A DNA stretch of 45,084 bases from Gemmatimonadota bacterium (GTDB lineage: Bacteria > Gemmatimonadota > Gemmatimonadetes > Gemmatimonadales > GWC2-71-9): NCBI GenBank assembly GCA_003221005.1, contig QHTZ01000069.1, forward strand, positions 1-45,084, given 5' to 3'. The notes under the pieces are model-generated. The model was not told the origin of the DNA. It saw only the letters and a program-made list of their open reading frames with translations, and made no database searches. This document shows positions 9,439-45,084 of this stretch, piece by piece. How positions within the stretch are numbered: the first letter of the stretch is position 1; each line of letters starts with the position of its first letter. The position numbers and the translations under genes are program-made.

Positions 9439-10703
9439 CCGCCACCGCCCGTGCGCCGCGCGCGACGATGTCGGGAAAGTCCATCGCCGACAGCCAGTTC
9501 GACCGCGCCGCCAACCTGATCGACCTCGAGCCGTACATGCGTCGCATCCTGGGCTCTCCATTCCGGGAGGTCCAGGTCGAAGTGCCGGTGCGGATGGACG
9601 ACGGGCACATCGAGGTGTTCACCGGCTACCGCATCCAGCACAACGGCGCGCGGGGGCCGTGCAAGGGCGGCATCCGCTACCACCCCGACGCCGACCACGA
9701 CGAGGTGCTGGGCCTCGCGACGATCATGACGTGGAAGACCGCCCTGATGGACATCCCGTTCGGCGGGGCGAAGGGTGGCGTGACCGTGGATCCCAAGCGG
9801 CTCTCGAAGCTCGAGCTCGAGCGCCTCACCCGTCGCTTCACGCAGCGCATCTCCATCATGCTGGGACCGTACCGCGACGTCCCCGCGCCGGACGTCAATA
9901 CCAACGCGCAGGTGATGGCGTGGATCCTGGACGAGTACTCGAGCCGGCACGGCTACACGCCCGCCGCGGTCACCGGCAAGCCGGTCTCGCTGGGTGGGTC
10001 GCTGGGCCGGGAGGAAGCGACGGGACGTGGTGTGATGTACGTGATGATGGAATACGCACGGGACTTCGGGCTGCCGCTCCAGGGCAGCCGGGTGGTGATC
10101 CAGGGCTTCGGGAACGTGGGCGGCCACCTGGCGCGGCTGGTCGCCGCCGAGGCGGGCGCCAAGGTAATCGCCGTCTCCGACGTGGACGGCGGCGTCGTGA
10201 ACGAGAAGGGGCTCGACGTCCCCGCCCTGCTCGCCCACACCGCCGGCCGCGGCCGCGTATCCGAATGGAAGGGCGGCACCGCTATCACGAACGAGCAGCT
10301 GTGGACGCTCCCCTGCGACTGGCTCGTCCCCGCCGCGCTGGGCGGCGTGATCACCAAGGAGCACAACGCACGCACGCTCGCCTGCAAGGTCGTGGTGGAG
10401 GGCGCCAACGAGCCGACGACGCCCACCGCCGACCTGATCCTGGAAGAGCGCGGGATCCCCGTGATCCCGGACTTTCTGGCGAACGCGGGCGGCGTGACGG
10501 TGAGCTACTATGAGTGGGCCCAGAACCTCCAGCAGTACCGCTGGACCCACGAACAGGTGAACCGCGAGCTGAAGGCGACGATCACCAAGGGCTACGTCGC
10601 GGTGCGCGATCTCGCCAAGCAGCGAGGCGTGACATTCCGGACAGCGGCGTACGCGATCGCATTACAACGGGTCGCGGAGGCGGAGAGGCTTCGGGGCAAT
10701 TAG
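9435..10703 (+). CDS. gdhA: Glu/Leu/Phe/Val dehydrogenase, most likely glutamate dehydrogenase
   Basis: Motifs GPCKGGIRY, PFGGAKGG, DVPAPD, VTGKP, ATGRG, QGFGNVG, EGAN, NAGGVTVSYYEW. Confidence 0.9.
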   Translation: MTATARAPRATMSGKSIADSQFDRAANLIDLEPYMRRILGSPFREVQVEVPVRMDDGHIEVFTGYRIQHNGARGPCKGGIRYHPDADHDEVLGLATIMTWKTALMDIPFGGAKGGVTVDPKRLSKLELERLTRRFTQRISIMLGPYRDVPAPDVNTNAQVMAWILDEYSSRHGYTPAAVTGKPVSLGGSLGREEATGRGVMYVMMEYARDFGLPLQGSRVVIQGFGNVGGHLARLVAAEAGAKVIAVSDVDGGVVNEKGLDVPALLAHTAGRGRVSEWKGGTAITNEQLWTLPCDWLVPAALGGVITKEHNARTLACKVVVEGANEPTTPTADLILEERGIPVIPDFLANAGGVTVSYYEWAQNLQQYRWTHEQVNRELKATITKGYVAVRDLAKQRGVTFRTAAYAIALQRVAEAERLRGN

Positions 10704-10758
10704 GCGGTCGGGTAAGGCGGCGGACGGAGGAGACGGCGGTCGAAAACGGCGGCGGTCA
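10703..10758 (+). repeat. Left arm: 16-bp-period GGCGGTC array flanking the four-helix-bundle gene
   Basis: GGCGGTCGGGTAAGGC GGCGGACGGAGGAGAC GGCGGTCGAAAACGGC GGCGGTCA. Confidence 0.85.
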
Positions 10759-11139
10759 TGCGAGCGAATCGTCAACGGACGCGCGTCCACCCTTGACGGC
10801 ATCGTAGAGACGCCACGTCAGCCGGCTGGCGTGAATCCGTAGCGGATTGAGCTCCACCCACTGCTCCTCCGATAGCAACTCGAGCTTCCGGCACAGCTGC
10901 AGAGTGTAGGACAGTTCGGACAGCGAGCCGATCGCGATGTCTAAGTAGCGCCGGAACTCACGGCGGCCATGCTTTGCGGATCCTTCCGCGATGTTGGCCG
11001 CCGCGCTGAACGCGGCCCGCCGCGCCTGCGACGTCAGTCCATAAAGCTCGGTGCGAGGAAAGCGCTCGGTGGCCCGATAGACCGCGACTACGAGAGCGTC
11101 GCAAGCATGCCACGCCCGAAATCGTTCGTACGGCTGCAT
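10756..11139 (-). CDS. Four-helix-bundle protein (23S rRNA intervening-sequence protein / TIGR02436-like family)
   Basis: 127 aa from ATG 11139: MQPYERFRAW...FPRTELYGLTSQARRAAFSAAANIAEG...EFRRYLDIAIGSLSEL, matching the family signature FPxxExYGLxSQxRRAxxSxxxNIAEG. Confidence 0.92.
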   Translation of the reverse strand: MQPYERFRAWHACDALVVAVYRATERFPRTELYGLTSQARRAAFSAAANIAEGSAKHGRREFRRYLDIAIGSLSELSYTLQLCRKLELLSEEQWVELNPLRIHASRLTWRLYDAVKGGRASVDDSLA

Positions 11140-11203: not shown

Positions 11204-11282
11204 GACCGCCTGACCGCCGCACTACTCGTCCGCCGCTTGAACTCACCGCCGTCGTTCCCGACCGCCGCCTCATCCGACCGCC
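11204..11282 (-). repeat. Right arm: inverted GACCGCC array flanking the four-helix-bundle gene
   Basis: GACCGCC-like cores at 11204, 11212, 11228, 11244, 11260 and 11276. The reverse complement of 11245-11282 matches 10703-10740 at 31 of 38 positions (counted by hand). Confidence 0.85.
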
Positions 11283-11287
11283 GTCTC

Positions 11288-12394
11288 TCATGGCGGCATA
11301 CCCGGCCGCGAATACAGCGCGCGATACGGATCCTCATCCGGCTGCGTGAACAGACGCACCTCGATCGCCCGGATGGTCTCCGCAATGTCGGCGCCGTTCT
11401 GCACGTAGACCTCGTCGAACAAGTTGAGGTTCATCCGGTAGAGCCGTTGCGCGATGACGACCGCGTTGTTGAGCGAGGCCTGAGCGAACCAGCGCCAGTC
11501 GTACGTCTCGAGCGACTGGCCCACCACGCCCGTCAGCTGGGCCCGCGCCCACCCGAACAGCGTGGCGCGCGCCCGCTCGAGCGCCGCCCCCGTGAGATCG
11601 CCCGCGTACGCGGAATCGAGCCGGCGCGCGAGCTCGGCATAGAACACGTCGAGGGTGCGCTCGTCGCGCCAGCGCGCCGCCGCCCGCTTGGCGTCCGCCG
11701 AGTCGCCGCGCGAGCGGAAGAATGCCGCGGCGCCATGGTAGCCCACGAAGCTCGCGAAGCTCTCGTTGAACGGCGTCTGGCTCTTCACGTACAGCGTGTT
11801 GTGCGTCAGCTCGTGGATAACGGTGGCGACGAGCTCCATCGTGTCCCGCGTCAGGGCTGTGGACAGCAACGGGTCGCTGAAGTAGCCGAGCGTCGAGAAC
11901 GCGGGGGCGGGCCGGAGATAGGTGTCGTATCCCTGGCGCTCGAGGTCGGCCGCGGTCGCGCGCGCCCGCGCGAAGTCGAAGAACCCCTTGTACGGCACCA
12001 CCCCGACGATCGGGTAGCTCCAGGTGTACTCGCGGAGCCGGTCGCGCCGGCTCGCCTGGAGCACCAGCACGAGCGTGTCCCGCCCCACGTCTGCATACGT
12101 CGTGTAGGTGTCGCCCGCCGAGAGGTGCAGCGAGTCCGCCGCATAGGCCCGGGCCGCGAGCACCAGCGCGAGGCGCTGCCGCAGCGGGGCGGGCGTTCGA
12201 GCGTCCGCCACGAGCTTCCGAATCGGATGCCGCTTGAGGAGGATCCGCGCCTCCTCGCACGCGGCGCGGGCGAGGTAGCGCACCTCGGCGCTCACGAGTA
12301 ACGCGAGGACTAGGACGGTCGGCACGCCCACCAGCACCCAGGCTGCGAGTCGACGCGCCACCCGCCCCCAGTTCGGGGGCCGGCGCTCCCTCAC
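11288..12394 (-). CDS. Putative zinc aminopeptidase, membrane-anchored or secreted
   Basis: GTG start overlapping the upstream stop (GTGA); N-terminal TM; WSYPIVGVVPYKGFF, AFSTLGYFSDP, HELTH followed by FNESFA (HExxH...E). Confidence 0.85.
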   Translation of the reverse strand: MRERRPPNWGRVARRLAAWVLVGVPTVLVLALLVSAEVRYLARAACEEARILLKRHPIRKLVADARTPAPLRQRLALVLAARAYAADSLHLSAGDTYTTYADVGRDTLVLVLQASRRDRLREYTWSYPIVGVVPYKGFFDFARARATAADLERQGYDTYLRPAPAFSTLGYFSDPLLSTALTRDTMELVATVIHELTHNTLYVKSQTPFNESFASFVGYHGAAAFFRSRGDSADAKRAAARWRDERTLDVFYAELARRLDSAYAGDLTGAALERARATLFGWARAQLTGVVGQSLETYDWRWFAQASLNNAVVIAQRLYRMNLNLFDEVYVQNGADIAETIRAIEVRLFTQPDEDPYRALYSRPGMPP

Positions 12395-13296
12395 GGGGTC
12401 CATCGCACCCCGAAGCGGTGCCGGGCCCCGGCCGGCTGATCGAACGACTGATAGGCGTAATCGAGGTGCAGCCGCCCGAGCTCGAGGCCCGCGCCAAGCG
12501 TGACGGGCGAGCCGTTCCCGGGCTGCGCACCGCTCCCGCCCCCAGTCGCGCCCACGCGCCCGACGATGCCCACGCCGCGCGCGACCACGCCGCCCTCCGC
12601 GCCCGCCACGAAGCGCGCATGCTGGCCGGCCGCCCCGCTCACGGGCCACTGGCCCTCGAACGTCGTGAGGAATCGCGCCGTGCCCTGGGGATCGACGTAG
12701 TTCATGGTGAACCCGACGCGCGCGCGCCGGGCGAGATGCGCACCGCCCCCGAAGTCGCCCCCGAGATTCTGCACGCTCGCCCCGAAAGCCATGATGTCGA
12801 ATACGGCGATCGCCACCCCCGCGTCGCCCGCCCAGGCGTCCACTGGCGCCCCGCTGATCGCTTCCCGTACGTACTTGAGCGACGTCCCGAGCGCGACGAG
12901 CCCGTGGCGGAACACGAGCGCCGTGAGTCCCAGCACGTCCGTGGGCTGGTACGTGGGCCCAGCGGGATAGTCGAGGGCCTGGGCCGCGACCCCCCAATCG
13001 AATCGCCCCACGCGCACCGCGAGGGCGGCCGACGAGAGCGTCGTCCCCGCGAGGTACGCCTCGTACGAGCCCTCCGCGGCGAAGCGGTGGATCGTAGCGA
13101 TCCCGGCGGGGTTCGTGAACACGGCGCCGGCGTCCCCGACGAGCGCAGCCCCGGCGCCGCCGAGAGACGCCGAGCGTGCCGATCCCGGGAGGTCCGCGAC
13201 GCCTTGGGCGGTCAGGCGGACGGGCGGTCCGGCAGTCAACAGGCCGACAACGGCTCCAACCGCCAGACCGCCTGACCGCCCGACCGCCGGCTTCAC
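12391..13296 (-). CDS. Outer-membrane beta-barrel, PorV/FadL-like
   Basis: N-terminal motif ARSASLGGAGAALVGDAGAVFTNPAGI; alternating beta-strands; C-terminal LDYAY...HRFGVRW. Confidence 0.7.
   Translation of the reverse strand: MKPAVGRSGGLAVGAVVGLLTAGPPVRLTAQGVADLPGSARSASLGGAGAALVGDAGAVFTNPAGIATIHRFAAEGSYEAYLAGTTLSSAALAVRVGRFDWGVAAQALDYPAGPTYQPTDVLGLTALVFRHGLVALGTSLKYVREAISGAPVDAWAGDAGVAIAVFDIMAFGASVQNLGGDFGGGAHLARRARVGFTMNYVDPQGTARFLTTFEGQWPVSGAAGQHARFVAGAEGGVVARGVGIVGRVGATGGGSGAQPGNGSPVTLGAGLELGRLHLDYAYQSFDQPAGARHRFGVRWTP
13207..13288. repeat. 8-bp-period inverted GGCGGTC/GACCGCC hairpin inside the signal-peptide coding region
   Basis: GGCGGTCA GGCGGACG GGCGGTCC GGCAGTCA, a loop, then AACCGCC A GACCGCC T GACCGCC C GACCGCC. 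Confidence 0.9.
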
Positions 13297-14948
13297 CTGA
13301 TCCGGATCACATTCAGCCGCGGCGCCGTCGTCTCCCGGAGCTGCGCGCCGCTGCTGTCACTGAACAGGATCTGGAACGCGCCTCCGCCCGGCGCCTGCAG
13401 CACGCGCTGGTACACTGCTCCGGTTCCGGCGCGGAGCGTGCCCGACACGCTCACGCTCGCCGGCGCTCCAGCAAGCGCCACGAGCGGGTAGGCGATGGAA
13501 CTGCCGCACCTGCCGCTCACCCTAGGGAACCCCGTACGAAAGGCCCACGACGTGTAGGTGAGGGCGGCGGGCGCGGCGAACCCTGGCAAGTCGGAGACCC
13601 ATTGGGCGAGCGCCCACCGGCTCACCACAGTCCCGAAGAGGTCGTTCGTCTGCGCCGCCACGTTAGTCGCGCCCGTCAGCGACGTGTTGTCGAGCTTGCG
13701 GGTGAAGGCGTCCTGCCCGGCGAGTCCGGCTCCTTGCGGGTACTGATCGGCCAGGTACCGCACGAACAGCCATCCCGCTCCTCGCTCCGCCAGCCCGCCG
13801 ATCCCCGACGTATCCACCAGGGGATGGCTCGCTAGGTCCCCCCAGTAACCCACCGCGTTGGAGATGTCGCTCCGCACGTAGCGGCAGAACGCCACAGTGT
13901 CCGGGAGGAAGGCTCGCCCCCCGCGCTCCTCGGCGTAGTGGGACAGTCCCTCGTTCAACCACAACTCCTCCGCCTCTTTTCCACGCACCAGCACGTGCTG
14001 AACGTAGCTGATCATGTGCTGGAACTCGTGCGCGAACGTGGTGGGGACGAGCTGCTTGACCTGGGCGACCGTATGGGCGCAGCTCAGCGTGGCGAGCGGG
14101 TCGGGCACGATCGCGTAGAAGATCTCCGCGTTATTGAACAGCCTCCGGTACAGCGGGTCGACGTCCCCGCCAAAGAAGAAGCCGGCGACGTAGGTCGCGC
14201 ACGGATTGCCGACCATCTTGTTGACGGTGTTGGTGAGCAGCACGATCACCACACCGTTGCCGTCGATGTCCGATTCGCGGCCGAAGGCCGCCGTGTCGGT
14301 GGGATAGAGCACGCTGTCGAACACACTGCGCAGGGTGTCGAGGTCGAACGCCGACAGACCCGGCTGGGGCGCGGCCGTGTCGATGAAGATCGCGATGTGC
14401 TGTCCCACCTTCCGCGCGACGGCCGTGATGGTGTCGAGTGAGAGGCCGGTAAGCGTATTCAGTACCTTGAACCGGCCCCTATCCCCCACCGTGATCGTCG
14501 CCGATGGACGTGGCGGCACAGGTGTCGTGGGGGGTACCGGGGCGGGCGCGCCCGCGCTCCCGCCGTACGCGCGCGTCCGTTCGAGCTCGCGCAGCCGATC
14601 ATGAAACCGCTCGGCGGGCGAGCGTGGCGACGGCATGACCTGGGCGCCCACGGCCAGCGCGGGCGCGGCGGCGGCGGCGCTCCCCGCCAGCATGAAGCTG
14701 GTCGACAGGTCGGGACTCCCGGTCGTGGCCTGCGGCACGAGGAGGTACTCGGCCGTGTCCGGCGAGCTATTCGCGGGAAAGACGACGCAGCCGTCCACGG
14801 GTTGGAGCGCCGCGTATTTCCCCATCGCCAGGACCTGGAGTGGCGCGTTGCTGGGACAGAAGGCCGCCGGCGGGGCGTTCGGCTGGCTGCTGCACGCCGC
14901 CACGAGAAGCAGCGACCACCGCGCCACCCCCGCGCCGAACCCGCGCAA
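13293..14948 (-). CDS. Zinc metalloprotease lipoprotein (HEFQH...WLNEG; M30-like), paralog B
   Basis: Lipobox LVAAC; FGRESDIDGNG; AHEFQHMI; WLNEGLSHYAEE. Exact start uncertain. Confidence 0.8.
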   Translation of the reverse strand: MRGFGAGVARWSLLLVAACSSQPNAPPAAFCPSNAPLQVLAMGKYAALQPVDGCVVFPANSSPDTAEYLLVPQATTGSPDLSTSFMLAGSAAAAAPALAVGAQVMPSPRSPAERFHDRLRELERTRAYGGSAGAPAPVPPTTPVPPRPSATITVGDRGRFKVLNTLTGLSLDTITAVARKVGQHIAIFIDTAAPQPGLSAFDLDTLRSVFDSVLYPTDTAAFGRESDIDGNGVVIVLLTNTVNKMVGNPCATYVAGFFFGGDVDPLYRRLFNNAEIFYAIVPDPLATLSCAHTVAQVKQLVPTTFAHEFQHMISYVQHVLVRGKEAEELWLNEGLSHYAEERGGRAFLPDTVAFCRYVRSDISNAVGYWGDLASHPLVDTSGIGGLAERGAGWLFVRYLADQYPQGAGLAGQDAFTRKLDNTSLTGATNVAAQTNDLFGTVVSRWALAQWVSDLPGFAAPAALTYTSWAFRTGFPRVSGRCGSSIAYPLVALAGAPASVSVSGTLRAGTGAVYQRVLQAPGGGAFQILFSDSSGAQLRETTAPRLNVIRIR

Positions 14949-14949
14949 C

Positions 14950-16638
14950 TCAGCGGATCCGCAGGACGTTCAGGCGTGGCACGACCGTTGCCTTCAGTAG
15001 CGCGCCGGTGGAGTCGCTGAACAGGACCGTGAACCCGGCCGCGCTGGGTCCCTGCAACGCGCGCTGGTACGCCGCACCGGAGCCCGTCCACATGACGCCT
15101 TTCACATTGATGCTCGGCCCCGCACTGCCAACTGCCACGAGCGGGAAGCTCGCGGGCAGCCTGGAGCTACAGGTGGCGTTCATCCGCGGGTACGCCGTGC
15201 GAAAGGCCCAGTGCTTGTACCGGAGGGCGGGGGGGGCCGTAAAGCCCGGAAGATCAGACACCCAGTTGGCGAGGGCCCATTCCTCCACTGTCTTCGCGAA
15301 CGCCTGCCCGGTCGCCTGCGTCACGTTCAGCGTGCCGGTCGACAGCGTCTGGTCGATCAGCCGCGTGAACGCAGCGGCTGCGGCGATCGTAGTGTCCGCC
15401 GCGAACCGGTCCACCAGGTAACGGACGAACAGCCAAGCATTCCCCCGCTCCGCCAGTCCACCGATCCCGCCCGTGTCGACAAGAGCGTGTAACCCCGGGT
15501 TCCCCCAGTACAATGCCGCGTTGTACAGATCTCCCAGGACGTGGCTGCAGAAGCGCACGCTGTCCAAGCCCCCCGTCCCCGCGAGGATCGCCCGCCCGCC
15601 AAGCTCCTCGGCGTAATGCGACATCCCCTCATTGAGCCACAGCGCTTCAGCCCGACCGCCCCGCAACAGCACGTGCTGGTTGTAGCTGATCATGTGCTGA
15701 AACTCGTGCACGAACGTCACCGGGACGACCCGCTTGATCTGGGAGTTGGGATGCGAGCAGCTCAGCGTGGCGCCCGAGTCCGCGATCATCGAGTAAAAGA
15801 GCTCTCCGTTGTTCCACATGGACGCGACGCTTGGGTCGATATCCGCCCCGAAGAAGAACCCCCCGATGTAGCCGGTCGCCAGGCAGTCCGACGCGCTCAC
15901 CAGCGTGTTGACCGCGTTGGTCATGAGCACGATCACGAGGCCGTTCCCGTCGATGTCCGATTCGCGTCCGAACGCGGTCGTGTCCGTGGCGTACAGCAGG
16001 GTGTCGAACACCGAGCGCAGCGTGTCGAGATCCTGCGTCGACAAGCCGTTCGGAGGCGCCGCGGCGTCCACGTAGATCGCAACGTGCTGCCCGACACTCC
16101 GGGCGATCGCCGTGACGTTGGTAGGGGGCAAGGCGTAGTTGGTGAGGCTCGACAGGACCTTGAACACCCGCTGGTTCCCAACAGTGTCTGGGCCAGACGT
16201 GAGCGCCGCCTGGGCACGCGCCCGGGGGGCGCCGGAGACGCCCGGATACGCTCGCGTCCGCTCCATCAGACGCAGCAGATTGTGGAACTGCTCGGCCGGC
16301 GACAACGGGGCGCCCTGGAGCAGCGCGGCGACCGGAGGTGCGGCCGTGAGGGGCTGGCCACCCGCCAGCTTGAAGCTCGACCTAAAGTTGGGAGCCTCGG
16401 CAGTCACCTGTGGCACCAGGAGGTACTCCGCCGAGTCCGTGGTGGACGCGTTCGCGGGGAAGCTCACGCACCCTGCCGTTGGCCCGGGGTCGATCGCCGT
16501 CGGTTGTCCCACGCTTAGCAAGAGCGCCGACACTCCGGAACGGCAGGCGGCCAGCTCCGGAGCGATCGGTGAACCCGCGCAGGCCGCTGCCAGCGCCGCC
16601 GCCCAGAGCCCGGCTGGTAACGCGTTCTTCCCCACCAT
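14950..16638 (-). CDS. Zinc metalloprotease lipoprotein (HEFQH...WLNEG; M30-like), paralog A
   Basis: GGAGGGAG RBS; lipobox-like LAAAC; FGRESDIDGNG; VHEFQHMI; WLNEGMSHYAEE. Confidence 0.82.
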   Translation of the reverse strand: MVGKNALPAGLWAAALAAACAGSPIAPELAACRSGVSALLLSVGQPTAIDPGPTAGCVSFPANASTTDSAEYLLVPQVTAEAPNFRSSFKLAGGQPLTAAPPVAALLQGAPLSPAEQFHNLLRLMERTRAYPGVSGAPRARAQAALTSGPDTVGNQRVFKVLSSLTNYALPPTNVTAIARSVGQHVAIYVDAAAPPNGLSTQDLDTLRSVFDTLLYATDTTAFGRESDIDGNGLVIVLMTNAVNTLVSASDCLATGYIGGFFFGADIDPSVASMWNNGELFYSMIADSGATLSCSHPNSQIKRVVPVTFVHEFQHMISYNQHVLLRGGRAEALWLNEGMSHYAEELGGRAILAGTGGLDSVRFCSHVLGDLYNAALYWGNPGLHALVDTGGIGGLAERGNAWLFVRYLVDRFAADTTIAAAAAFTRLIDQTLSTGTLNVTQATGQAFAKTVEEWALANWVSDLPGFTAPPALRYKHWAFRTAYPRMNATCSSRLPASFPLVAVGSAGPSINVKGVMWTGSGAAYQRALQGPSAAGFTVLFSDSTGALLKATVVPRLNVLRIR

Positions 16639-16823
16639 GCGACTCCCTCCTTGAGGTCATCTTGACCTGCCTAGCCGAGCCGGACGGCCCGGCCTGCCCA
16701 CTTGCCAAGCGCCTCGGCGTGTGGCCTAGGCGTTCGCCGGGAAGACCACGCGCCCTTGCGTGGGGACCGGATTGACTGCGGCATACTGCCCCACCCTGAA
16801 GCACGAGCAGGTAATACACGGGA

Positions 16824-18200
16824 TTACAGACGGCCAATGGGGGACCCGTCACCCGGGCGGCGGAGGCCGCCAGCAGCCCCGACCACGGCCCCATCTGCGA
16901 GCGTCACCGCGCCAACATCCGCGACCTCTTTGACGTCCCGCACGCGCACCAGGGCTCGACGGAAGCAGATCGGACCCACGACCTCATACACCGCAACCAT
17001 CGCGACCACCAACGCCTGGAGCGAAATCCCCCAGGCCGGAAACGCCAGCCGGGCTGCGGTCGCCAGCCCCAGCACGGCACCGGCCTGGGAGATAAGCCCC
17101 AGCCACCCCTCCCGCGCAAGGGCGAGCGTCACAACCGGGCTGCGTCCCGCCCACAGGGTGCCGTAGCGCAGCGCCACCGCCCGCAGTCCGGCGAGCAGCA
17201 GCACCCACGGCCAGAGATCGGCGAGCGCCTCAAGGCGGAACCCCGCCCCGGCGAGAAGAAACGTGACCGCGTAAACCGGGAGCGCCGCGCGGGCCAGCTC
17301 CGCGCGCAACCGCTCCGCCTCCTCCTGGATGACGCTCCCGACGTAGATCCCGGCGGCGAGCGCCACCAGCAGCGCTTCCCCCTGCAGAAAGCTAGCCACG
17401 ATCACTGGCACGAACGCCAGGGTGACGAGCACGAGCGCGGCATCTCGCCTGACCAGCCTGAGGTATTGCGAAATGAACGCTCCCAGCGCCACGCCGACGG
17501 CGAGCGATCCGGCCAACCGCGCCAGCGCCGCTGCACCCACGCCCAGATGGACTGCACCGGCACTGCCCCCGATCCGCGCGACCGCCAGGACCAGAGCCAG
17601 GAGGACAATCAAGACGACATCCTTCACGATCGTCACGCCGAGCACGGCTCGGGCGAACGGCCCACGCGCGTCGAGCTCGTCCATGAGCGCGAGCGTCACC
17701 ACGGGGGAGGACGCGACTGCGATGGTGCCCAGCGCCAGCGCCACAGCCAGGGCATTACCAAATGGCTGATGCACGGTGAGCGGGAACCACGGGCTGACGC
17801 TGAGCGTCACCAGGGTTACCGCGGCGAACGGGAACGCGATCGTACCACCGGCGAGGCGGCCGAGCGCCGCGCGCTCCGCGCGCAGTGTAGCGAGCGGCAC
17901 CAGACTTCCGGCCGCAAACGCGATGAGCGCCGTGCACGCGTCGCCGACGAAGCCGAGGGCGGCTACCTCGTCCGCGCGCACCAGGTTCAGCCACGCGGGG
18001 CCGGCGCACAATCCGAGCAGTACGAACGCCGTGATCCGCGGCAGCCGCGCCCGGCGCGCAACCTCACCGGCCGGCCACGCGGCGACGAGCAGGAACCCGA
18101 GCGCGAGTGCGGCTCGTGCAGCGACCGGGCTCGCTGCGGTGAGGCGATGAAAAAGGGCCATCATCAGGCCCAGTGCGAAAAAACCCGCGACCCACCGCAT
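16824..18200 (-). CDS. Cation:proton antiporter (CPA family)
   Basis: About 12 TM segments; [41 protein letters not shown]. Start reassigned to ATG 18200. Confidence 0.82.
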
Positions 18201-44297: not shown

Positions 44298-45084
44298 CTA
44301 CCCTTGCAGCGCCTCCGCGCCGCCGACGATCTCCGCGATCTCCTGCGTGATCTGCGCCTGCCGCGCCCGGTTGTAGGTGCGCCGCAACAGGTCGAGCATG
44401 TCCCCTGCGTTGTCGGTGGCGTTCTTCATCGCCGTGCGGCGCGCGCCATGCTCGGCGGCCGCGGTCTCGACCAGCGCGCGGAACATTTGATTCTCGACGT
44501 ACAGCGGGAGCAGCCGCTCGAGGATCGCGTCTGCGGAGGGCTTGAGAATGTAGTTGGCCGCCTGACCGCCCGACCGCCGGTCCGCCCGGGGCGGGGAGAC
44601 GGGGAGGATACGCTGCACGGTCGGCGGCGTCGAGATCGCGCTGTTGAACTTCGCGAACACGACTTCGACCGCGTCGAGCGCCCCGGTCTCGAATGCCCGC
44701 ATCAGCGGGGCCACCAGCTCCGCGGCGTGGGCCGCCGTCGGCCGGTCCCCAATGTCCGCGCGTTGCGAGGCGACGGAACGGCGGGTGAACCGAAAGAACC
44801 CGATCCCCTTTTTCCCGACGAGATGAAGGTCCACGGCCGTCCCCTGGGCCTCGAGCTCCTGGAGGCGACGTCGGGCCTCGCGGATGAGGTTTGCGTTGAA
44901 CGCCCCGCACAGCCCGCGGTTCGACGTGATCAGCACGAGCGCGACCTTCTTGACGCCGGCCGCGCCCGGTTGCCGCAGCAGCGCGAACCGCTCGGCCAGG
45001 GCCGGGGAATAGAGGTCCCCGATCACCTCCGCGAGCGCCGCCGCGTACGGGCGCGCCGCCACCACCCGATCCTGCGCGCGCTTC
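44298..45084 (-). CDS. atpG: ATP synthase F1 gamma subunit (5'-truncated by window edge)
   Basis: ITSNRGLCGAFN, EHGARRTAMKNATDNA, YNRARQAQITQEIAEIVGGA. Confidence 0.97.
   Translation of the reverse strand, partial: KRAQDRVVAARPYAAALAEVIGDLYSPALAERFALLRQPGAAGVKKVALVLITSNRGLCGAFNANLIREARRRLQELEAQGTAVDLHLVGKKGIGFFRFTRRSVASQRADIGDRPTAAHAAELVAPLMRAFETGALDAVEVVFAKFNSAISTPPTVQRILPVSPPRADRRSGGQAANYILKPSADAILERLLPLYVENQMFRALVETAAAEHGARRTAMKNATDNAGDMLDLLRRTYNRARQAQITQEIAEIVGGAEALQG
44556..44586 (+). repeat. 8-bp-period GACCGCC array in frame inside an AtpG loop
   Basis: GGCCGCC T GACCGCC C GACCGCC G GTCCGCC, encoding RADRRSGGQAA on the minus strand. 44558-44580 is identical to 13268-13290. Confidence 0.8.

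Follow-up and report, generated by a model that had tools for sequence, protein, structure and literature searches.

Small palindromic repeats that lie within bacterial genes and are translated with them are already known, and we describe here a case in which such a repeat probably forms a whole export signal. The repeat is an 82-nt palindrome of tandem octamers (13207..13288, minus strand; four units, a loop and four inverted units) at the beginning of a gene for a PorV/PorQ-like outer-membrane protein, in a stretch of 45,084 nt from a Gemmatimonadales soil bacterium (the window, that is, the whole of the DNA analysed); both the hairpin and the gene are read on the minus strand. The Rickettsia palindromic elements, reportedly described by Ogata et al. 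in 2000, are said to be small palindromes lying in frame in genes and translated as extra peptide segments. As with those elements, there are orthologues of the present gene with and without the repeat. However, the Rickettsia elements, going by their published description, are 100-150 bp long, have no tandem short units, belong to another phylum and show no sequence relation to the octamers. To our knowledge they have not been reported to supply whole signal peptides. REP and REPIN elements, which RAYT mobilises, are short imperfect palindromes with numerous copies close to the ends of genes and a length of about 80-100 nt when paired. They are characterised by a GT[AG]G head and the link to RAYT, whereas the octamer arms are tandem arrays with many copies inside genes, and no GT[AG]G head was seen in the octamer units. 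A likeness can also be seen to the rRNA intervening sequences with a 23S_rRNA_IVP open reading frame (ORF; PF05635), in which the ORF is in the loop of a long stem, and of the arms around the PF05635 genes of this genome one set shares the GGCGGTC unit; unlike those sequences, the present hairpin lies outside rRNA and its loop contains no ORF.

Previously, Delihas (2007) described the enterobacterial MITE-like RU-2 element as forming part of one predicted signal peptide, that of Yersinia pestis YPO1552 (PMC2759123). In the available text of that paper RU-2 is a single in-silico case, does not consist of tandem octamers and forms part of the signal, whereas here the whole n-h-c order would correspond to arm, loop and arm, and the octamer case is seen again in at least six genes of this genome and at 21 of the 112 public loci. 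In Geobacter metallireducens, Aklujkar et al. (2009) reported 'class 1' paired sites of four tandem octanucleotides on opposite strands with the consensus GTTGCTYN, and related classes with copies both between and within genes (PMC2700814). The class 1 sites share with the present family the four 8-nt units, an inverted partner array at variable distance and the many copies. However, the unit sequence and the phylum differ, the Geobacter sites were interpreted as regulator binding sites of unknown function, and the available text describes no coding of signal peptides by them (PMC2700814). Rehm et al. (2015) described G-rich heptamers with a preference for four copies, GGGAATC in Xanthomonas and GGGGA(C/T)T in Nostoc, which, like the octamers, lie close to stop codons (within about 50 bp) and mostly between co-directional genes (PMC4692102). 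In contrast to the octamers, their units are of 7 nt, they were read as G-quadruplexes and they are mostly intergenic (7-11% intragenic); the available text does not describe them as inverted peptide-encoding pairs, and the term 'signal peptide' is absent from it (PMC4692102). Full-text literature searches on palindromic or repetitive elements together with signal peptides, and on Gemmatimonadetes together with REP, returned nothing on the Gemmatimonadales octamer family itself.

While the translation of intragenic palindromic repeats is not new, a whole signal that maps as arm, loop and arm, and that recurs across a bacterial order, is notable. Signal peptides are usually viewed as fast-evolving and gene-specific; here the whole export signal would come from one copy of a repeated palindrome, a solution that seems to recur in many unrelated secreted proteins. 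For annotation this matters as arms without a stop in any frame make it easy to misplace start codons and signal peptides at hairpins of this kind. For evolutionary questions it would provide a clean example from nature of a DNA repeat recruited as working protein sequence; closely related genomes have the site filled, degenerate or empty. Together with the rule of four units and the conserved arms, the strict position of the hairpins behind stop codons points to a process of targeting or maintenance, perhaps connected with translation coupling in operons.

The hairpin and the predicted signal peptide

The PorV-like gene (12391..13296, minus strand) has a GTG start and encodes 301 aa, with a match to the NCBIfam PorV/PorQ profile NF033709 from residue 36 onwards (E 3.5e-15). 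The hairpin makes up codons 3-30. Its 5' arm in the mRNA (13258..13288) consists of four GGCGGTCN units, which on the minus strand follow each other from 13288 to 13258 with an exact 8-nt period as GGCGGTC-G, GGCGGTC-A, GGCGGTC-T and GGCGGTT-G, and is translated as A-V-G-R-S-G-G-L-A-V. The loop (13238..13257) gives G-A-V-V-G-L-L in the translation, and the 3' arm (13207..13237), with four inverted units of which two carry one mismatch each, gives T-A-G-P-P-V-R-L-T-A. Directly after the last unit comes CAA (13204..13206), the codon of Gln31. A repeat search returned the same structure as 30-nt arms (13207-13236 and 13259-13288) with 83% complementarity and 22 nt between them, together with a direct repeat family of three copies at 8-nt spacing; the length of the loop is accordingly 20-22 nt. 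A preliminary description, made from the letters of the DNA, had claimed that four octamers, a loop and four inverted octamers encode the N-terminus, and this is borne out by the unit positions, the repeat search and the translation; the N-terminus quoted there is indeed the translation of the ORF 12391..13296 (minus strand) from its GTG.

The hairpin is both unusually stable and real as DNA. The sense-strand RNA folds with -82.7 kcal/mol compared to -56.8 +/- 3.9 kcal/mol in 200 dinucleotide shuffles (z -6.69), none of which was as stable. The strong stem that had been noticed close behind the start codon is confirmed, and in the minimum free energy (MFE) fold the GUG start and the UGA stop of the upstream gene, which overlap as GTGA (13293..13296, minus strand), are themselves among the paired bases at the foot of the extended stem. 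In the window as a whole, a pattern of two units with at most two mismatches was found 14 times compared to 3.5 +/- 1.8 times in shuffles, and 14 matches were reached in none of 100 shuffles. A contig of DNA run X7, which comes from a different study of soil, spans 12922-13900 with one difference and bridges the hairpin, which therefore is no artefact of assembly. In DNA runs X5 and X6 the contigs stop at the hairpin, as is expected of a repeat. The scan against Rfam 15 returned only mir-341, at 26.2 and 20.6 bits where the gathering score is 90; these hits are of the kind that a long hairpin gives by chance.

According to the translation, the N-terminus has the charges K2 and R7 followed by 17 uncharged residues (S8-P24), among them L-A-V-G-A-V-V-G-L-L, and the predicted cleavage after L-T-A and before Gln31 has small or neutral residues at -3 and -1. 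In this arrangement the 5' arm would provide the positively charged n-region (K2, R7) and the beginning of the h-region, the loop would provide the hydrophobic core, and the 3' arm would provide a c-region whose Pro-Pro breaks the helix and whose L-T-A fills positions -3 to -1, so that Gln31 would become the first residue of the mature protein. A Sec signal cut by signal peptidase I before Gln31 is strongly indicated by these features. The protein can be expected to need such a signal, as it belongs to an outer-membrane barrel family and a signal is present in every orthologue. We consider it about 75% probable that the hairpin element is translated as the signal peptide of the PorV-like protein.

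A period of 8 nt has a consequence for coding. As 8 cannot be divided by 3, reading an arm in its three frames yields cyclic permutations of one peptide, GG-x-AV-x-RS in the G-rich arm and TA-x-PP-DR-x in the inverted arm, and the element can therefore lie within coding sequence; in a GGCGGTCR element a stop can arise only as TGA, in a single frame of the inverted arm. Upstream is a co-directional gene (13293..14948, minus strand) for an HExxH protein of 551 aa; the hairpin begins 4 nt past the TGA stop of this gene, so the stop abuts the hairpin, and because the GTG start overlaps that stop, the whole element falls within the first 31 codons of the PorV-like gene. Between the GTG at 13296 and the conserved domain the only other in-frame starts are a TTG at codon 20, in the loop, and a GTG within the conserved motif, and initiation at the TTG would leave no signal. 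Judged by the reading frame, the GTG at 13296 is thus the only start codon that would give an export signal. The preliminary description had allowed that the true start could be downstream of the hairpin, and this does not hold, with no usable start there and a signal in 19 of 19 orthologues.

The same position in related genomes

In the orthologue search a match to the PorV-like protein was obtained in 32 of 41 related genomes (a tally that includes G020), and N-termini were read for 19 orthologues, with the copy of the window (G000) counted among the hairpin bearers. All 19 have a hydrophobic N-terminal segment that ends in [AG]Q a few residues before a conserved block, 'LPGS.RS.GLGGAG'. A full hairpin is present in the window, in two genomes of the same genus (G001 and G002) and in one of another genus (G009), and a degenerate copy is found in G003. 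The remaining 14 orthologues, including G004, G005 and G006 from the same genus, have ordinary signals of 15-26 residues without repeats in the same position, and therefore the hairpin occupies the slot of the signal peptide exactly. The loops of the four hairpin-bearing orthologues differ in their DNA and are hydrophobic in 4/4. The arms are 81-94% identical among the four, compared to 63-73% for the mature part and 46-59% at its third codon positions, and two compensated units were seen in the G002 orthologue, which is anecdotal.

The distance from the upstream stop to the start of the mature part is 89 nt in the window and 86 nt in G003, compared to 61 nt in G004 and 68 nt in G006; in G015 it is 104 nt, made up of a spacer and a 15-residue signal. 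As 89 nt is set against 61-68 nt in the hairpin-free orthologues of the same genus, the 82-nt element must have replaced an older signal and was no addition to one, and it would have taken the place of an ordinary signal peptide of about 20-24 residues. The preliminary description had spoken of a repeat element domesticated into, or invading, an export signal and had pointed to orthologue signal peptides as the comparison to make. The comparison, with ordinary signals that also end in [AG]Q in the same slot, supports that wording, and because of these distances 'invading' fits better than a simple insertion.

The strict GGCGGTC hairpin pattern occurs in 4/41 relatives (G000, G001, G002 and G009), and these are exactly the genomes with the hairpin signal. 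A maximum-likelihood tree of the mature domain with 19 rows (L013 of G022 was excluded as a partial match, G002 and G008 entered untrimmed at the N-terminus, and the tree is unrooted as to hairpin changes) does not bring the hairpin rows together as a single clade: G002 falls together with G005 and G006, which lack the hairpin, with support of 99/97, and G009 falls outside the genus clade. A single origin of the hairpin signal was also considered and is unsupported, as the hairpin-bearing rows are not monophyletic in the gene tree.

The Gln at +1 in most hairpin signals and in all 19 orthologue signals suggests that something like the 'Q-rule' of Bacteroidetes may apply in Gemmatimonadales. 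Gemmatimonadetes are absent from the main text of the paper on the Q-rule (PMC5837995). In the proteome, [AG]Q follows hydrophobic N-termini in 143 of 596 candidates (24%) compared to 395 of 3742 background windows (10.6%), which supports the rule weakly as the candidate set is noisy.

The octamer family in this genome and in public genomes

The 82-nt element is a member of a family of short palindromes that have about four 8-nt units in each arm and are largely restricted to Gemmatimonadales, with GGCGGTCR as the unit in this lineage. The genome consists of 141 contigs with 2.79 Mb and 69% GC. Arrays of the core G[GA]CGG with an 8-nt period and at least three units number 81 compared to 4-14 in three shuffles, and 16 of them form hairpins. 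Among the unit types are GGCGGTCN, GACGGAAN, GACGGTCN and one with a TAG, which has stops in all frames. At comparable stringency, arrays with a 7-nt period outnumber those with an 8-nt period genome-wide (143 vs 40).

N-termini resembling signal peptides come from 6 of the 16 hairpins (C52, C60, C62, C75, C77 and C88), and in all six the start codon is 1-5 codons upstream, the loop is hydrophobic, the end is A-Q and the GC content at third codon positions (GC3) downstream is 0.84-0.94. The genes include an M16 peptidase (C60), a TolB-like protein with PD40 repeats (C88) and a protein with an M42-type peptidase domain (C75). The suspicion voiced in the preliminary description that the motif could be a one-off does not hold, in view of these six and of the public loci given below. 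The TolB-like signal peptide is encoded by a hairpin in several species, with GACGGAA-type arms in this genome (L137, C88:51044-51141) and GGCGGTC-type arms in L022, L074, L077 and L093, which looks like a swap of the arm type at one orthologous position.

Other copies lie in frame in genes for cytoplasmic proteins: in the linker of RadA between the zinc ribbon and the ATPase (L138, C106:63793-63863), in an interdomain linker of an anthranilate/PabB-type synthase (L139, C100:3797-3868) and in Era between the GTPase and KH domains (L142, C40:8403-8431). Because of these copies the repeat must be regarded as a repeat at the level of DNA that is independent of export. Further hairpin copies are in 5' leaders or intergenic. 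Hairpins with TAG units (TAGACGGG type; C38:42487-42609, C68:12757-12843 and C120:21490-21599) are closed in all three frames and are not traversed by any long coding frame, in contrast to the stop-free GGCGGTC and GACGGAA types. In the window, a solo array of 3-4 GGCGGTC-type units (44556-44586, minus strand) lies in frame in an apparent gene for the ATP synthase gamma subunit (atpG), seemingly in a loop before the conserved C-terminal helix, as judged by eye from the translation.

In a collection of species-representative genomes the exact pattern of two units, a gap of 18-48 nt and two inverted units occurs at 112 loci, and among the matches listed 78/80 are from Gemmatimonadales or from metagenome-assembled genomes of Gemmatimonadota. 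The two listed exceptions are actinobacterial, L039 from a Streptomyces sp. plasmid and L049 from Glycomyces arizonensis; both have only 2+2 units and may be due to chance or unrelated. With a start codon at most 10 codons upstream, a hydrophobic loop and a downstream GC3 of at least 0.8 as the class rules, 21 loci are signal-peptide-like, 17 are internal and in frame, 35 are N-terminal or 5' without signal features, and 39 have no coding frame. The loops are hydrophobic in the 21 signal-peptide-like copies, with maximum 8-residue Kyte-Doolittle means of 2.2-3.2, and hydrophilic in the other classes. Two further features, neither of which was used in defining the classes, point in the same direction: Gln directly follows the last unit in 16/21 signal-peptide-like loci vs 5/91 others (two of the five look like near-misses), and Leu is at -3 in 13/17 vs 13/44. 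At the variable position each G-rich arm has a purine, and the partner base is not its complement.

Weighing the signal peptide against other readings

Several observations weigh against the signal-peptide reading or against parts of it. The c-region is 8-9 residues long with an Arg at -4, which is atypical of Sec signals, and other hairpin copies have Asp and Arg in the c-region, which is likewise unusual. The NF033709 match reaches 56.4 bits and so is below the curated cut-off of 90, and a match of the protein to Pfam UPF0164 is weak and sub-threshold (15.9 vs a cut-off of 21.4); due to these scores the protein is named PorV/PorQ-like only. The same genes (tolB, a gene beginning 'DSLPAGYG' and others) recur across species among the public loci, so that the locus counts are not independent. 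Metatranscriptome run X20 gave one 237-nt contig covering 12884-13120, which is a relative of the gene with about 96% identity and therefore shows neither transcription nor processing of this gene; an additional arm-only match in X20 comes from another locus. Across the 112 loci of the family there were 10 compensated changes between the arms compared to 8.8 +/- 2.7 in shuffles, and the N positions form Watson-Crick pairs in 112/316 cases vs 121 expected and are thus not complementary. Without such covariation there is no support for selection on pairing, and the conservation of the arms could reflect recent spread or homogenisation. If the stem has a role in translation, the PorV-like gene would rely for its initiation chiefly on ribosomes that come from the end of the HExxH gene and melt the stem. 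This translational coupling, which the MFE fold and the GTGA overlap hint at, is a weaker suggestion than the signal peptide itself.

Of the other explanations, the one that survives best is that the hairpin is selfish or neutral DNA of the REP or MITE kind, without a function of its own and tolerated since a signal-peptide slot accepts almost any basic-hydrophobic-polar sequence. We hold this to be somewhat improbable as the full explanation, with a good deal in its favour: the distribution is patchy, with the unit type in 4/41 relatives only, the hairpin orthologues are not monophyletic (G002 stands with the hairpin-free G005 and G006 at 99/97), the copy in G003 is degenerate, copies in cytoplasmic proteins sit in frame in tolerant linkers, and the arms do not covary. 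However, tight placement after stops together with the preference for 4+4 units (exactly so in 52/112 hairpins) would need either a targeting mechanism or selection, and the arms are conserved above the level of second codon positions across about 40% protein divergence. Neither is a mobilising enzyme linked to the repeats: the genome has two matches to Y1_Tnp (PF01797; C27 and C66), nothing connects these with the octamers, and a GTAG-type head is missing from the units.

It is also conceivable, and in our estimate unlikely as the main role, that the hairpin acts at the RNA level, as a junction element after stops that couples or throttles the next gene or protects or processes the upstream mRNA, in which case the coding of a signal peptide would be a secondary accommodation. 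Such a role is compatible with the signal-peptide reading. The hairpins usually begin 0-10 nt past a stop codon: near the 112 hairpins there are 106 ends of strongly coding upstream ORFs, and in 49 of them the stop ends at a distance of -2 to +10 nt from the first unit; in the signal-peptide-like loci, among the matches listed, the distances cluster at 0-3 nt. The pairing of the start codon and the overlapping stop in the MFE fold and the far better conservation of the arms than of the rest of the gene are in line with this, and a parallel is provided by the G-rich heptamers of Xanthomonas and Nostoc, which are within 50 bp of stops and prefer four units according to the available text (PMC4692102). 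The sense strand folds better than the antisense strand in 15/21 signal-peptide-like loci; however, the antisense strand folds better in 24/35 other coding loci, and the asymmetry is probably a by-product of codon choice. Against an RNA-level role stand also the lack of covariation between the arms and the non-complementary N positions, the promoter and terminator scan of 12300-17000, in which nothing was found at the hairpin, neither a U-tract nor a terminator-like site, and the mid-gene copies in RadA, Era and the synthase, which have no junction to regulate.

That the hairpin is untranslated intergenic DNA, with the start downstream or the gene a pseudogene whose signal was destroyed by the insertion, is very improbable. 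Arms that are open in every frame let a longest-ORF rule run through them by default, and other copies do lie in 5' leaders or between genes (39/112 without a coding frame and 35/112 N-terminal or 5' without signal features). However, the stretch from the hairpin to the conserved domain offers no usable start, export is a necessity for an outer-membrane barrel family and the slot is filled by a signal in every orthologue, the ORF is intact with a GC3 of 0.89 downstream of the hairpin, and the hydrophobic loop and the A-Q junction are kept in four species. The simple-sequence contingency loci of Haemophilus and Neisseria have tandem non-triplet units at the 5' end of a surface-protein gene as their classical layout, and the present locus fits that layout, as slippage by one unit would change the reading frame and turn off the outer-membrane protein; but such phase variation is the least probable of all these explanations, given that the unit number is fixed at four (52/112 are 4+4), that contigs of three independent soil DNA runs show no indels (contigs hide rare variants), that four units are short for efficient slippage and that the same arrays occur in essential cytoplasmic genes.

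Among the readings, the translated signal peptide is preferred. About 2 kb away, a four-helix-bundle gene (PF05635/TIGR02436; 10703..11286, minus strand, with the PF05635 match at 10840-11121) lies between inverted arms at 10703-10762 and 11207-11286, which are complementary at 83% over 42 nt. The earlier claim that the core of the hairpin is the same as in the arms of this element is confirmed by the GGCGGTC units that both arms hold. Inverted tandem-repeat arms enclose all six PF05635 genes of the genome, with a separate unit (7, 8 or 10 nt) for each gene; the other five are at C132:17435-17970, C135:470-995, C118:61265-61740, C39:307-835 and C66:3746-4180. It could be speculated, and we regard it as doubtful, that a sequence-specific factor, for which the four-helix-bundle proteins would be candidates, recognises GGCGGTCR and installs or homogenises the arms after stops, and that, where genes overlap, the module would serve both as a swappable signal cassette and as a stem tying translation of the secreted protein to the upstream gene. 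If this were true, the change of arm type at tolB and the replacement of the old signal would be traces of the activity of that factor. The PF05635 copy of C39 lies just downstream of an apparent 5S rRNA gene.

The two genes upstream of the PorV-like gene (13293-16638, minus strand) encode paralogous HExxH proteins of 551 and 562 aa. The N-termini of both resemble lipoprotein signals by eye, with a Cys after a hydrophobic stretch, and their only profile match is a weak one to an MXAN_6640-type metalloprotease.

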